A DNA stretch of 64,000 bases from positions 52,638,001 to 52,702,000 of the forward strand of contig NC_043015.1 in NCBI RefSeq assembly GCF_006345805.1, read 5' to 3'. The position numbers and the translations under genes are program-made. This DNA is from Octopus sinensis. Its lineage: Eukaryota. The notes below the pieces were generated by a model that made no database searches, had not been told where the DNA came from, and saw nothing but the letters and a program-made list of their open reading frames with translations. Below, one piece after another: positions 23,481-46,285 of this stretch (its first letter is position 1; each line of letters opens with the position of its first letter).

Positions 23481-23503
<23 letters not shown>

Positions 23504-23513
<10 letters not shown>

Positions 23514-23773
23514 TATTCGAGACAAAACCACTATTTTGCAAAACAAACGAGGAAAGACTTAATCAATACATAAATTTTAATAAATAGTCAAAAAATGTGG
23601 CGGTTTTTTTGACTATTTATTAAAATTTATGTATTGATTAAGTCTTTCCTCGTTTGTTTTGCAAAATAGTGGTTTTGTCTCGAATAATATTTTATAATAT
23701 TTTACTATAAAATCGATTTAATCCTAAATCTGATTTTTTCCCTGTAAATTTGGATTTATTCCCTAATATTTAT

Positions 23774-23813
<40 letters not shown>

Positions 23814-24082
23814 TATAAAATATTATTCGAGACAAAACCACTATTTTGCAAAACAAACGAGGAAAGACTTAATCAATACATAAATTTTAATAAATAGTCA
23901 AAAAATGTGGCGGTTTTTTTGACTATTTATTAAAATTTATGTATTGATTAAGTCTTTCCTCGTTTGTTTTGCAAAATAGTGGTTTTGTCTCGAATAATAT
24001 TTTATAATATTTTACTATAAAATCGATTTAATCCTAAATCTGATTTTTTCCCTGTAAATTTGGATTTATTCCCTAATATTAT

Positions 24083-33284: not shown

Positions 33285-33851
33285 TTGTTCTCTTTCTCTT
33301 TTTAATTTAGAATAAATTTTGACTGACCACTTGCTTAGTAGAACAGTTAAGGAAAGAATCTTGCTTTATTCATCCTCATAAATCTTAATGTTTAGCAGAT
33401 TTTTTATAGTCCCAGACATCATGATCATTTGTCAATTATGAATTAAAGATATGGCGCAGGAGTGGCTGTGTGATAAGAAGCTTGCTTACCAACCACATGG
33501 TTCTGGGTTCAGTCCCACTGTGTGATACCTTGGGCAAGTGTCTTCTACTATAGCCTCAGGCTGACAAAGCCTTGTGAGTGAATTTACTAGATGGAAACTG
33601 AAAGAAGCCCGTTGTATATATGTATGTATGTGTGTGTATATGTTTGTGTATCTGTTTTTGTCCCACCAACATCGCTTGACAACCAATGCTGGTGTGTATA
33701 CATTCCCGTAACTTAGTGATTCGGTAAAAGAGACCAATAGAATAAGTACTAGGCTTACAAAGAATAAGTCCTGAGGTTGCTTTGCTCGACTAAAGGCAGT
33801 GCTCCAGCATGGCCGCAGTCAAGTGACTGAAACAAGTAAAACAGTAAAGAG
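31950..33851 (+). mobile_element. Three plus-oriented SINE family A copies (about 31950-32340, 32775-33150, 33453-33851)
   Basis: Same head, core and tail as 18015-18400. Confidence 0.88.
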
Positions 33852-37625: not shown

Positions 37626-37772
37626 GGTGCGGGGATGGCTGTGTGGTAAGTACCTTGCTTCCCAACCACATGGTTCAGGGTTCAGTCCCAATGTGTGGCA
37701 CCTACTATAGCCTTGAGCTGATCAAAGCCTTGTGAGTGGATTTGGTAGTAGGAAGCTGAAAGAAGCCCATTG

Positions 37773-37804
<32 letters not shown>

Positions 37805-38023
37805 GTGTGTGTGTGTGTGTGTATTTGTGTGTCTGTGTCTTTCCCACCACCTTTGCTTGAAAATCTATGTTGGTGTGTTTACATCCCCGCAACTTAGTGG
37901 TTCAGTAAACAAGATCAATAGAATAAGTACTAGGCTTACAAAGAATAAGTCCTGGGGCCGATTTATTCGACTCAGGGCAGTGCTCCAGCATGGCTGCAGT
38001 CAAATGATTGAAACAAGTAAAAG
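37626..38023 (+). mobile_element. SINE family A, near full length
   Basis: ggtgcggggatggctgtgtggtaag...gattgaaacaagtaaaag. Confidence 0.88.
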
Positions 38024-40414
38024 AACAGATACATACACACACACACACACACACACACACCTTCATCATCATCATCATCATCATTTGATGTCCTCCATTT
38101 TCCATACAGGCACAAGCTGAATGGTTTGATAGGAGCTGGCAAACCAGGGGTCTAGAAACACACATGTAGATGTGTGTGTATGTACATACTCATACACACA
38201 GGGATAGATAGGAATACATACAATGATATGTACACACTAAGTCACGACAGGTTCTATCAACCAAGTGCACTTGCGAGGCTTTCATTGGTCCAGCACTATA
38301 GCAGAAGCCACCTGCCCAAGGTGCCATGTAGAGGGACTCAACCTAAAAGCGGGGCTGCCTTAGCAGTTTTATGGCCACCACCTCCTCGGAAAAATCAATG
38401 CATTGAGCCTTATAGTATATTTTATTGACAGCAAGCTATGATATAAGTAGATCAGAAGTGTGGCCCTAGCCCCGTGAGGCTCCTGAAGCAACTGACCAGT
38501 GTATTCATGCCTTAAGATGGCCCTGCATGAAACCAATTGGCTGAAAAACAGGCCAATGAACTCTCTGATCCTTACAGACTCTGCTTTTTTAACAAACAAG
38601 AAGAAATCAGTTCCCATCACAACAAAGTCAACATGTGCTCAGTAAAATTTATTCCAGAATATTCTCAAGAGACTCAGCTTCCATATACCTCCTAGTCATT
38701 CTTCAACAAACCAACAACACAACCTCATTACTATCACTGCCAAAATAAAACAAACAAAAAATATATTTAACTTGTTTACATTTAAACCAATCATATTTCG
38801 CCCCAAAATTCAACCAGCTTTATGTTAAAACCTGCCAGATCCAGCCTGTCGCACCTACTCTACAATGTCATTCTAAAAATAGACTAACACACCATTGAAA
38901 TCCTGAAGCTTTGAGATGAAGCAGGATTAATTCAAAACAATGTGAAGAGATACAGCCCAATGGTTATGTGTTGCATTCTTGAGCATCAGATCATGGGTTT
39001 TCATATTGTTTTGCTCTGGCATTGTGTGGAGACTGGCATTTCAATGAACACACCTAATATTTCTTGTGTATCGGAAAAGGTGACTGAATGAGATTGAGCT
39101 AGGATTTGCACTCCGACCTCGTAAAACCTTAACCAGCATTGACTACCCAAAACGACCCATGAGTTGGAGGGCTGTCGCCTGATTGGTGCAAGGGCATCAT
39201 GCACCAGGAGTGGGAGGGAAACACCAACAAATGGTGGGTGCAGTGACATGCTGTTACAGCACGTTCCCCTCATGCAGCAATTTTTATTACTAACGTGAAG
39301 AAATAAAGCATTATAATTGACAGAGCAATCTGAATGCTGTAGGGTTAAACAAAGTAGCCAACCAGAAAATGTGGGGGTGATAGGAAGAGGAGCAATGGTA
39401 CCACAGGGAAATAAATGGTGGTGGTGGTGGTGGTGATAGTGAGATAGTGATGCTGATGGTGGGGGGTAAAGAAAATATTTACAAATATGATATCAAGTAC
39501 AAGGAGAAAAAAAAAAATAATTACAGACATGATGAAGAAATTAATGCTACAAATAGCAGAGACCAGACAGTAAAAACATTCCAGAATCTCAAAAATTAAT
39601 GAAAAAAAAAAAAAAAATGATTGAGCTTGAGAGATGAAGAAAACAGAGAGTGAGAAGAGAGGTGAAACAATCTGAGAGAGAGGTTACCAGAGAGGGAGAA
39701 TGAGAAGATAAGAGTAATAGAATTGGAATGGGAATAATAGAATAGGACTACAATATAGTATAAGAATACTGAACAAGAATACAATATGTACATAGAATAT
39801 TAGAATACGATTGTAAACAAAGAATAAGAACATGGATAATAGAAGATCAGAATAATAGAATACAGAATATAATACAGAATCAGAATAGAATGCAGAATTA
39901 GAATAAAAGAATAAGAATATCCTGAACATCAACCAAATCTAACATGGAAGTAAAAACCTTGAATAAACATCTCTCGCTCTATGTAATTTGGAACCCAGAC
40001 AGTCCTGAATTATTAATTTATTTAAAGGATTTACAGTGAGTCTTGTGTTCTTATTTAACATTTGAATGGCGGGGTAGGTTTGAAATGTTAAGCACAGCTT
40101 TCTATAACTACACACATTGAAACTGAGTGGAGTATATAAGATATCATTCGAGCTGTAAAAATAGCAGCTAAATACCCACTCAAGTTACACTACCATTAAA
40201 CTCTATCATCCAACCTGGAAGACAGAGTTTGGTCCCATAAATGTATACAAAATGGGCTGTTAGACATTTCATAAAGGTAAGTAAAAAAGGATGAATGTCT
40301 AAGTGAACCTTGGTTACATAACAATTCTGTGATCCACTGCTCTCCAAGAAATAATGATTCCAAACTAAGCCACAAGGCCCATGCATTTTGTGAGAATTAA
40401 ACAAAGGGTAAAGA

Positions 40415-40744: not shown

Positions 40745-41405
40745 TGAGAATAAAGTACAGCTGATGTAATCAACCCCAATATGTGACTGGTACTTGTTTA
40801 GCCCTTTCATTACTGTGTTTCCATAGAAACACAACACAAGTGTTTTAATTAAATTTGGATTTTGTAAAACAACTTGGATATTATTAAGATGATGTTTGAA
40901 ACAGAAAATTTTCATAAAAGGTTTTAATTTAGCTCATATCTGTCCCAAATATTCTACCTGTTTTATGTTTAAACTGACCAGATTTGGCCTCTCACACTTA
41001 CCCTACAATGTCATTTCAAAATCAATAATCACATCAATGAAGTATCAAAGCTGCAAGCCAATGCAGGATTAATTTAAAACAAGCATTATGTCTGACAAGG
41101 GTCTCTGAATGCTAGAATTACAGCAGCAAGTTTGTCTTATAGAAACAGGGGTTGGTGTTAGTCAGGTTGATATCATATGGGTTAAATATACCATAATCTC
41201 TGCAGTTTCTGGGTGTTTTCTTTTGTTTTTTTTCGAAGGGTTTTGTGTGTGTGTGTGTATGTGAATTTGAATGTATATACCTTTTTCAGGAGGTGCATTT
41301 TTTTAAACCAACATTTCATTTAACATGTAAAAATGGTACACAAGAAAAACATAATCAAAGAAAAGGAAGGTTACAGAAATGAAATAATGAAATAGCAGGA
41401 CTTAC

Positions 41406-41594
41406 TTTTATCGAATCAAAGCAAGCTGTCACGCGTCCATTTTGTACTTCTACGTGAGAGGGCGGATGAGCAAATTTGCATTCTGTTTCAGAGCGTGTAC
41501 ATTTGTTTCTTTGGAACTCGCGGCAAACTTCCAGTGTCAGCCATCGCGAGTCTTTGACGTTAGCAAGATTAAGCATAGGGTTAACCATGGCCAT
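41406..41594 (-). CDS. mbl: Muscleblind/MBNL RNA-binding splicing regulator, first coding exon (63 aa; partial gene)
   Basis: Translates [63 protein letters not shown]. It has the [14 protein letters not shown] signature, CX7CX6CX3H finger 1 and the first Cys of finger 2. It ends at a phase-0 GTAAGT donor (41405-41400), the same position after FDS(I/L)K as in human MBNL1. A second in-frame ATG lies at 41588. Confidence 0.97.
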
Positions 41595-42615
41595 AACAAA
41601 TGGGTAATCTTCTTCACAGAAAGAAGTTTTGAAAGACTTCAGGGTGTGCGCGCAAGGGGAAAAAGGGGGTTTGTCGTATATTCGGATGAAAGAACGGTAA
41701 ACGGACAAAAAAGAGATAGAAAGAGACAGACAGGAAGAATGTGGTAGGTTTTAAAAAAAAATATTTGGACTGTCGGTTTAAAAATTTTTCAAATAAAAAT
41801 ATAATACAAAGAATAAAACGATGGACACACAGACACAAAGAAAATATGTTAAAGTCGACTGTAAATGGAATTACGATCCGAGATTTCCAGCAAATGGAAT
41901 ATTCTTTGAATTTTTCCTTTCTTTTTTTTTTTGATTGTGCTTTCAGAGAAGTATAAGATCAGCAGAGAAATAGGGGGTGTGTTGTTGACACGGAGGAGGA
42001 TGTGTGCATGTGTATGCTTGGGTGTATGTGTTTATGTATATGCATGTATGGGCTGTGATAATAAAACGGCTGCCAACAATGGATTAAAGAGTCTGTTTGG
42101 GGGAGGGGAGATATTTTTCTTCATATATATATATATATAAAAATCTCACAGCAACTGCACATTGGGGGTGAGGGGTGACGTTTTGGTAGAGGGGAGGGCA
42201 GGTATATTATATAATATATTTTCTAAAATATATATATATACATATATATATATGTATATATATATATACATATGTATATATATATATAAATATATATATG
42301 TATATATATATATATATTAATTTCGTTTCGTGTTGTTTTTTTTTTCTTTTTTAATATTTACTTTTAAATATTTAATTAAAAATTATTTTCGTTTAGTAAA
42401 AAAAAAAAAAATAACACTGTTTCTTTTTCTTATTCACTTTGAATGATGTTTGGCATTGGCTTTTGTTTTTGTTGCTTTTTGTGGAAAGGAGAAATTTGTG
42501 GGGTTTTTGGGTTTTTTTTTTTTACAAAAAATGGTAAAAATATTTGAAAATATCCAATTTCACACCAATTTATGGCATCCAGCAGTGTTTTTTCCTGAAC
42601 AAATTATGGTTGAAC
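41595..42615 (-). other. mbl: Predicted 5'UTR part of the first coding exon of mbl (whole exon about 41406-42615, 1210 nt)
   Basis: The strongest minus-strand acceptor upstream of the ATG is TATTCTATTTTATTTTATTTTCCAG|GTTCAACC (AG at 42617-42616). Weaker alternatives lie near 42595 and 41860. No SINE is recognisable between this acceptor and the ATG. Confidence 0.6.
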
Positions 42616-42767
42616 CTGGAAAATAAAATAAAATAGAATATTTTGAGTAAATCTATTTATTATTAGCATCGATTAAGAAAAAATTAACAAAGATTCATAA
42701 TTTTACAAATGTCAAAAATGAAAATACCAAACGGTTACAGCTTAAAAACGAAGGAAAATGGAGTTAG

Positions 42768-43153
42768 TTTTACTCTTTTACTTGTTTCAGTCATTTGACT
42801 GCGGCCATGCTGGAGCACCGCCTTTAGTCGAGCAAATCGACCCCAGGACTTATTCTTTGTAAGCCTAGTACTTATTCTATCGGTCTTTTTTGCCGAACCG
42901 CTAAGTTATGGGGATGTAAACACACCAGCATCGGTTGTCAAGTGATGTTGGGGGTACAAACACAGACACACACATATATATATATACATATATACAAAGG
43001 GCTTCTTTCAGTTTCCGTCTACCAAATCCACTCACAAGGCTTTCGTCCACCCGAAGCTATAGTAGAAGACACTTGCCCAAGGTGCCACGCAGTGGGACTG
43101 AACCCAAAACCATGTAGTTGGTAAGCAAGCTACTTACCACACAGCTACTCCTG
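42768..43153 (-). mobile_element. SINE family A, full length, about 150 bp upstream of the predicted mbl acceptor
   Basis: Near-exact reverse complement of the copies at 18015 and 33453. CpGs are largely intact, suggesting a young copy. Confidence 0.92.
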
Positions 43154-44804: not shown

Positions 44805-45192
44805 TTTTACTCTTCTATTTGTTTCGTCATTTGACTGCAGCCATGCTGGAGCACCGCCTTTAGTCGAGGACTTATTCTTTGTAAACATAGTACTTATTTT
44901 ACCGGTCTCTTTTGCCGAACCGCTAGGTGACAGGGATGTAAACACACCAGCATCAGCTGCAAGCGATGTTGGGGGGACAAACACAGACATACAAACATAT
45001 ATACACACACACACACACACACATATATTTATATATATATATATATATATATACGACAGGCTTCTTTCAGTTTCCGTCTACCAAATCCACTCACAAGGCT
45101 TTGGTCAGTCCGAGGCTATAGTAGAAGACACTTGCTGAAGGTGCCACACAGTGGGACTGAACCCCGTTACCATGTGGTTGGTAAGCAAGCTA
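44805..45192 (-). mobile_element. SINE family A with 9-bp TSD
   Basis: Reverse complement of family A. CTTGGAGTC occurs at 44796-44804 and 45193-45201. Confidence 0.9.
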
Positions 45193-45927
45193 CTTGGAGT
45201 CGGTAAAACTATACCAACTCTGATTCCAACTCACAATGTCTTTATTCTTTAATATGAACCAGTTATAACATATAGGCCTACTCAAAGTACAAGCGTATGC
45301 ATATGCTTTATGGGGTATGCAGACCACAATCATTTGATTACATAAAGAGGAGTCAGAGTCAGAGGTGCATCAAAGTTTCTTGTTTCGACTCCACAGCCCT
45401 GCTTATAAGCCATCAAATATGGTTAATTCAATTACCAATGCCTGCATAAAAAAAAAAGACATAGGTATGGTAAAAACAGATAAGGCACCACAAGGTGGGA
45501 TTGAACTTGCAACAAAGTTAAGTGCAAGTATAAAGATTTTTAAGCATGACACCACACCACAGGTGCCGACAGTAAGCTGCCTTTAATCCTTGAGCAGAAG
45601 GAGAAAATGAAAGGTGTGATTTGAAGAGGAGATAAATTGTTGAGCTAAGCAGCTTCCTGCTATGCTGGTAGCATTTGCTGGGTAGGGAAGGAGAGAGGGG
45701 AGGTCTGAGGGTATGGAGAAAGAAGTGGGACAGGAAGGGGAGGAGTAATGAGGGAAAAAGGAACCATTTAGGATCTACAGCAAATAGAATCTGATTAGTT
45801 TATAGCTGGCTTAGATCTAAAGAGATTCAGGAATTGCAAAGAAGCTACCTGTCTCTTGACATTATCCTTCCTGTTTCTCATTTAAAAGTGTAAGAGTTGA
45901 AGACTTCTGAGGAAGGAAGAGAATCGC

Positions 45928-46285
45928 TGGCGAGGCTGTGTGATAAGAGGTTTGCATTGCAGCCACATGGTTGTGGGTTCAGTACCACACGGTGGTACCT
46001 TGGGTGTCTTCTACTCTAGCCTGGGGAATGGTGGGGTGGATTTGGTACATGGAAACTGAAAGAAGCCTCTTGTATATAAATATGTATATATGTTTGTGCG
46101 TTTTGTGTTTGTCTCCCACCACCACCACTATGACATGACAACCACTGTTGGCTTGTTTATGTCCCTATAACTTAGCGGTTGGGCAAGTGACCAAAAAAAA
46201 AAGGAAATACTGGGGTCAAATTGATTGACTAAACCCTTCAAGACAATGCGCCAGCATGGTCACAGTGCAAAGACCGAAACAAATG
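45928..46285 (+). mobile_element. Diverged SINE family A copy
   Basis: ggctgtgtgataag...gggttcagtacc...ggaaactgaaagaagcc...cttagcggtt. Confidence 0.75.

Follow-up and report, generated by a model that had tools for sequence, protein, structure and literature searches.

This analysis focused on the second exon of the Octopus sinensis muscleblind gene, which a sequence-only reading had put forward as the source of a cephalopod circMbl. Exon 2 and its splice sites were confirmed as real, beyond chance, and linear splicing from either of two 5' exons (1a or 1b) through exon 2 to exon 3, yielding full-length MBNL, was shown in RNA-type contigs. The octopus exon has the layout of a circMbl host exon and belongs to a clear member of the muscleblind family, and a circle made from it is unproven. 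The explanation favoured here, with moderate confidence, is that of a linearly spliced exon from which a circle arises at most as a minor side product, by way of long introns and inverted repeats rather than the UGCU noted beside its donor. CircMbl is the standard example, drawn from flies and mammals, of a conserved, self-regulating circular RNA, and no report of a mollusc circMbl was found in the open-access literature. If confirmed, an octopus circle would extend circMbl to the third great branch of the bilaterians and speak for its ancestral origin; what has been shown so far is a gene that is already annotated and has the exon layout one would expect, and the significance is modest at present.

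Muscleblind exon 2 and its linear splicing

The window, i.e. the whole 64,000-nt stretch of DNA that was analysed, corresponds to G000:C19:52638001-52702000, and inspection of its sequence placed muscleblind exon 2 on the minus strand, running from 42615 to 41406 (1210 nt; G000:C19:52679406-52680615; Table 1). The limits, the acceptor and the consensus donor proposed from the letters alone all held, and both sites were found in use in RNA-type contigs. The proposed muscleblind identity was also correct, as was the guess that the lineage was probably a mollusc: the 63 encoded residues match the beginning of P0007 with 100% identity, and the source of P0007 calls it muscleblind-like protein 1 of Octopus sinensis. 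The gene is already annotated (isoforms XP_036367039-052), in protein records that nowhere mention circular forms. Finger 1 lies whole within the exon product (C24, C32, C39, H43; PF22628 at residues 23-50), and the first Cys of finger 2 is encoded there as well. Structures of MBNL1/2 matched at E 6.5e-26, the solved fragments (83-92 residues) extending beyond the end of exon 2 into finger 2. Four CCCH fingers were mapped on C19, with the other coding exons downstream on the same contig, and the tandem CCCH fingers together with the signature RWLxLEVCR...C[FY]DSIK place the gene in the muscleblind/MBNL family. An Rfam search of window positions 30000-52000 returned no match, and a tRNA search found none.

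Table 1. Features in and around muscleblind exon 2 (window positions)
Feature	Position	Strand	Remarks
Muscleblind exon 2	41406..42615	-	5'UTR of 1021 nt containing 8 upstream ATGs, followed by 63 codons; RNA-type contigs use both ends
Acceptor, pyrimidine tract and CAG	42616..42640	-	Spliced to the donors of exon 1a (G000:C19:52730846) and exon 1b (G000:C19:52791720)
Donor GTAAGT (AAA/GTAAGT), phase 0	41400..41405	-	Joined to exon 3 at G000:C19:52624277
Coding part, MBNL residues 1-63	41406..41594	-	ATG at 41594; 7 YGCY vs 2.7 expected
Zinc finger 1 (C-x7-C-x6-C-x3-H)	41466..41525	-	Sequence; PF22628, E 4.5e-12; MBNL1/2 structures 2rpp, 5u6h, 3d2n
TAA at exon codon 4	42604..42606	-	Would stop the circle reading frame; ends a 16-codon uORF begun in exon 1a
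Single UGCU	41394..41397	-	+9 to +12 past the donor; background level, not conserved
A12 tract	42512..42523	-	Lies 92 nt into the exon; further tracts are A10 from 42345 and A11 from 41932
Interspersed repeat, ~390 nt	42768..43153	.	Distance to the acceptor 153 nt; predicted to supply the upstream arm of inverted pairs
Second upstream copy	44805..45195	.	Orientation as 42768-43153
Nearest inverted copy, intron 2	37638..38024	.	75% over 403 nt; 3.4 kb below the donor
Best inverted copy, intron 2	33457..33848	.	87% over 393 nt; 7.6 kb below the donor
Inverted copy inside upstream intron	45935..46186	.	74% over 265 nt; would compete with cross-exon pairing

The splicing evidence came from a search that listed 24 runs, 20 of them containing the stretch (14 guessed to be RNA, 6 of unknown type); none is recorded as RNA, and this blank was given no weight. 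Contigs from eight of the 24 (six study codes) were compared, four runs at each exon end and none at both, and two intron stretches that lacked contig cover, 42650-42760 on the acceptor side and 41265-41342 on the donor side, were not counted as evidence. The acceptor at 42615 was joined to the same upstream letters, those of exon 1a, in all four runs, and to a second upstream sequence, exon 1b, in X11, with a record of X4 that matches the latter by length and place, its letters being undisplayed. Each of the two 5' exon sequences has a single genomic location, at a canonical donor that lies 50,230 nt (1a) or 111,104 nt (1b) upstream. At the other end, three of the four runs (X12, X16 and X18) joined the donor to exon 3, and in the fourth, X7, the only contig continues past the donor unspliced for 63 nt of intron 2 (41343-41405). 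Since the spliced joins span introns of 50-111 kb, seven of the eight runs contain RNA. Exon 2 is thus an internal exon with two alternative 5' exons: neither a different acceptor nor transcription starting in the exon itself was seen, the exon being joined at 42615 to upstream exons. The very long downstream intron foreseen in the sequence-only reading measures 55.1 kb to exon 3.

Several other readings of these contigs were considered and rejected. The loose-end letters at the acceptor were tried as multi-exon back-splices, and both map upstream as the 5' exons. Recursive-splice sites were set aside, there being one motif on the sense strand and two on the control strand; a recursive-site-like YAG/GTGAG with a pyrimidine-rich run occurs at window 56989 (minus strand) in the intron between exons 1a and 2, not beyond chance. 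Intronic polyadenylation, giving a 79-aa read-through product, was likewise dismissed, as the only candidate signals are ATTAAA at +478 and +557 and the X7 contig is more simply taken as pre-mRNA. An A-rich stretch lies at ~41230-41300, so that internal priming on pre-mRNA is the simple reading of that contig. At L014:1580-1600, ~80 nt above the donor of exon 1a, a long T tract and an AG may serve as an acceptor, in which case exon 1a would be internal in some transcripts. Contig differences at 41490 (A>G on the plus strand in X12 and X7, a synonymous third position that reads U>C in the sense strand and hence is not A-to-I) and at 41682 (T>G in X16, in the UTR) are likely to be alleles.

In 80 related loci, the position after C[FY]DSIK was followed by GT in 38, by the linear splice in 41 and by other sequence in one; the intron position is ancient. 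Among the related loci no meaningful similarity of the 5'UTR was found. One side sequence, L002:1501-1790 (G000:C13496:56371 onward), encodes a divergent muscleblind-like finger 1 with 45% identity and the same donor position, yet passes into the finger 2 frame after only ~26 nt, with no AG seen. The L002 locus, unlike those of C19, is without dinucleotide repeats, as are L012 and L013, and the three may belong to a parasite, perhaps a dicyemid, that was sequenced along with the octopus and has tiny introns, rather than to an octopus paralogue. Among the bee, ant and wasp records P0149-P0238, more than one short isoform is annotated in several species, with tails that all begin with V after CYDSIK but are otherwise different; recursive splicing within the long intron 2 of mbl, or alternative last exons located there, could account for them.

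Likeness to circMbl and the search for a back-splice

The orthology claimed for the circularising exon of fly mbl and human MBNL1 was borne out; the octopus exon has the same layout and the same phase-0 intron after finger 1. It is an internal second exon that carries the 5'UTR, the ATG and finger 1, it ends at the conserved intron, and it lies between very long introns (50.2 or 111.1 kb upstream, 55.1 kb downstream). With Drosophila mbl exon 2 it further shares alternative 5' exons, A tracts and a stop soon after the junction, the octopus junction being computed only. The fly circle has been demonstrated, and is reported to make up >70% of the exon 2 signal, to depend on MBL, to be associated with ribosomes, and to be visible in poly(A) libraries by virtue of its A tracts (PMC9352392, PMC5387669); in octopus, by contrast, no junction was seen in contigs and YGCY in the flanks is at background. 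The first coding exon of human and mouse MBNL1 (e1) is alike in joining a ~1-kb UTR to finger 1 (1049 nt, as against 1210 in octopus), and is described as having several upstream UTR exons up to ~50 kb away and a very long downstream intron. Start-codon exons between long introns form a circle-prone class, the AUG circRNAs (bioRxiv 10.1101/328104), and the octopus exon resembles them in this respect; the class, as presented there, was defined on observed circles and is mostly independent of inverted repeats, whereas the octopus exon is known from its layout and its linear joins.

By analogy with fly, mouse and human, where this exon is circular, an abundant octopus circle gains in prior probability, and with the AUG-exon class taken into account there may be a little over an even chance that some exon 2 circle would be detected by RT-PCR. 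A circle of the full fly kind would be abundant, promoted by MBNL through YGCY sites in the flanking introns, self-buffering, and translated to a 66-aa one-finger peptide. The shared exon architecture and the intron position retained in 38 of the 80 related loci speak for such a circle; taken with the evidence from contigs, YGCY sites and homologues, it is regarded as very unlikely.

A back-splice would have shown itself in the contigs in one of two ways: as a record that stops at 42615 and continues there into letters of the exon end, or as letters of the exon start following the donor. The exon ends were compared separately, and a back-splice was therefore judged from the loose ends of contigs, with no direct joint table. 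Across eight of the 24 listed runs (18 acceptor-side and 5 donor-side records, the former including two loose ends and three pieces that were undisplayed) no back-splice contig was found, a weak negative in that library and tissue are unrecorded. Contigs prove presence and not absence, rare forms being dropped in assembly. Read as a graph, the contigs of seven runs pass singly through the node where a back-splice branch would split them. X12, the deepest run, was examined at the donor only, and breaks there exactly, with no third arm listed; on the same graph reading, such a break would result equally from intron retention, from skipping to a later exon or from back-splicing. The break is unexplained and so far counts on the side of a fly-like circle.

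The weight of this negative can be gauged from exon 1b, the branch of which survived assembly at about one fifth of the junction depth (12.8 vs 50.5, and 3 vs 12.6, these being rough contig depths). In addition, the A tracts of exon 2 could, as in the fly (PMC9352392), let oligo-dT prime on a circle. For these reasons the missing back-splice contigs speak mildly against a fly-like dominance of the circle in these samples; they say little about a minor or tissue-restricted one, since assembly loses rare forms and neither the libraries nor the tissues are documented. Elsewhere, a VQP ending was absent from the best 120 of 370 short homologues, which also tells against the fly-like alternative, and 80 of 115 related metagenome loci gave no sign of circular permutation, with no post-donor letters recurring upstream and no terminal overlaps. 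A study of octopus circRNAs kept 296 after filtering and found them low overall (PMC9699675). Its main text and supplementary PDF name no muscleblind circle, the 296-member list standing apart from both, and an exon 2 circle may be among those listed.

The in-frame stop noted just past the back-splice junction stood as a reading but not as a signal. On the constructed junction, the open reading frame of the exon 2 circle is 63 aa followed by VQP-stop, 66 aa in all, but a stop falls within four codons by chance at 12% of UTR positions and 16% of window positions. The TAA is inferred to be mainly the stop of a uORF, or incidental: an ATG 13 codons before the exon 1a donor opens a frame of 16 codons that closes at this TAA, and exon 1b provides none. 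A similar uORF caveat about circle stops has been raised for the fly (PMC5387669). As the uORF (L014:1498-1540 plus window 42604-42615) is missing from exon 1b transcripts, the choice of promoter could alter MBNL translation.

Translation of the fly circle is supported (PMC5387669; bioRxiv 2025.10.31.685782), and an AU-rich, unstructured exon start is reported to permit initiation on it (bioRxiv 2025.10.31.685782). The start of octopus exon 2 is likewise AU-rich and unstructured, in keeping with a fly-like circle, while the eight upstream ATGs in its UTR stand against one. In human and mouse data, AUG circRNAs are described as showing no translation (bioRxiv 328104). Under the favoured explanation, in which the exon is spliced linearly and a circle is minor at most, little or none of the 66-aa peptide would be made.

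YGCY sites and possible MBNL binding

A UGCU just after the donor had been singled out as a possible MBNL site. It is present at 41397-41394, but it is at chance level and not conserved: YGCY occurs by chance in 9% of 14-nt stretches, was found in the first 20 intron nt of one among 29 distinct related introns, and at +9 requires an Ala at tail position 4, which is seen in 3 of 105 read-through tails and is missing in P0130 (98% identical). In the flanking introns, 300 nt on either side hold 6 YGCY together, where the window averages 5.4, and counts over 150-500 nt equal those of dinucleotide shuffles. The two flanking introns thus show no enrichment, and the UGCU position is not retained in relatives; this goes against the fly-like circle. 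The same count gives 7 for the flanks of human circMBNL1, close to octopus and below the 10 treated as high in PMC6689976. Since a known circle is likewise at background, the flank count is uninformative rather than damning, and to that extent it is compatible with the fly-like alternative.

The premise that the circle is under MBL/MBNL control fared unevenly as well. It holds for the fly, where circMbl is MBL-dependent, but human circMBNL1 is not reduced by MBNL sequestration, as far as the published accounts go: circMBNL1 is described as scarce, with no change in DM muscle (PMC5389549), and in DM1 no tested circle fell consistently (PMC6689976).

A different distribution was found within the exon. 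Its coding part (189 nt) has 7 YGCY where 2.7 are expected from synonymous codons (p 0.002, uncorrected, with about six regions tested post hoc). Four other exons of the gene, including that of finger 3, are at or below expectation, and 44 of 63 related coding segments, which are not independent, are above their own null. The UTR of exon 2 has 7 against 7.1 in shuffles, and the first 190 nt of the exon have only 3. The excess in the coding part is suggestive, and is consistent with binding of MBNL to its own RNA; MBNL may bind the coding end of exon 2.

These sites raise the alternative that MBNL regulates itself through exonic YGCY, by exon skipping or retention of the mRNA, as mammalian MBNL1 does, a circle being a by-product. 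Besides the excess itself, the alternative 5' exons are in its favour, as skipping in human MBNL1 depends on the start site (PMC5389549). The mammalian exon, however, carries at its 5' end nine YGCY conserved in mouse and human, proven by CLIP, and its skipping is MBNL-controlled (PMC5389549, PMC6689976); the octopus 5' end has 3, its excess being in the coding part. With the post hoc choice of region, and with no exon 1a-to-3 skip branch evident (contigs run unbroken from 1a to 2 and from 2 to 3, on graph inference), self-regulation of this type is considered unlikely.

Inverted repeats bracketing exon 2

Exon 2 is flanked by members of a family of ~390-nt interspersed repeats, presumably SINE-like, which has 51 copies in the 264-kb locus. 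Two copies lie above the exon, and a run of copies in the opposite orientation lies below it. The copy at 42768-43153 is predicted to form duplexes across the exon of -503 kcal/mol with 37638-38024 and -618 kcal/mol with 33457-33848, compared with -289 kcal/mol for the competing duplex inside the upstream intron. Within 10 kb there are 17 inverted matches across exon 2, and five other exons tested were far lower. The inverted-repeat score of the exon was reached by none of 90 other points in the locus (264 kb) and by 11 of 306 control points, all 11 from one repeat-dense region, while its inverted-minus-direct score was reached by 3 of 306.

Other measures temper this pattern. Random flips of orientation gave p 0.12, 0.013, 0.03 and 0.15 at 5, 10, 20 and 50 kb, the skew over whole introns had a Fisher p of 0.11, and 4 of 77 repeat-rich controls were equally skewed. 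Only 15 independent repeat elements lie within 10 kb, and no inverted pair was found within 2 kb of the exon. The bracketing of exon 2 by inverted repeats is noteworthy but suggestive only, and a circle, if there is one, is probably helped by it. It also sets the octopus exon apart from those of the fly, whose circles are generally without inverted repeats (bioRxiv 328104, citing Westholm 2014).

Taken further, the repeats might give rise to a substantial, tissue-restricted circle by pairing, tuned by ADAR and with no MBNL binding beside the splice sites. The number of inverted matches, the orientation score and the predicted energies argue for this, as does the report that octopus editing is mainly in introns and 3'UTRs (PMC9699675). 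The few independent elements, the dependence of p on distance and the equally skewed controls argue against it, as do the separation of the nearest partner from the exon (3.4 kb), its likeness of 75%, and the fact that no circle was seen; such a circle appears unlikely. A broader proposal is that a neural circMbl exists in octopus and is bilaterian-ancestral, with its biogenesis rewired to lineage-specific inverted repeats, ADAR-controlled dosage, and MBNL reading the YGCY at the coding end; this combination is distinctly unlikely.

The favoured explanation, a linearly spliced exon with at most a minor circle, would draw on the same elements more sparingly. Slow splicing over very long flanking introns (50-110 kb) may allow the donor to attack its own acceptor, and pairing of repeats across exon 2 would add some chance of back-splicing. 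ADAR editing of the repeat duplexes, which is high in coleoids, would keep the circle low. If inverted repeats do drive a circle, the locus would be one clean place to ask whether the heavy A-to-I editing of coleoids suppresses or tunes back-splicing, an effect that, in the octopus study, is proposed in general terms only, as a repression of circles by editing (PMC9699675). A further potential editing substrate lies elsewhere in intron 2, at window 23499-24060, where an AT-rich unit of ~300 nt is present as two tandem copies between TA tracts; each copy is a near-perfect, MITE-like palindrome of ~190 nt (95%) that would form a long hairpin.
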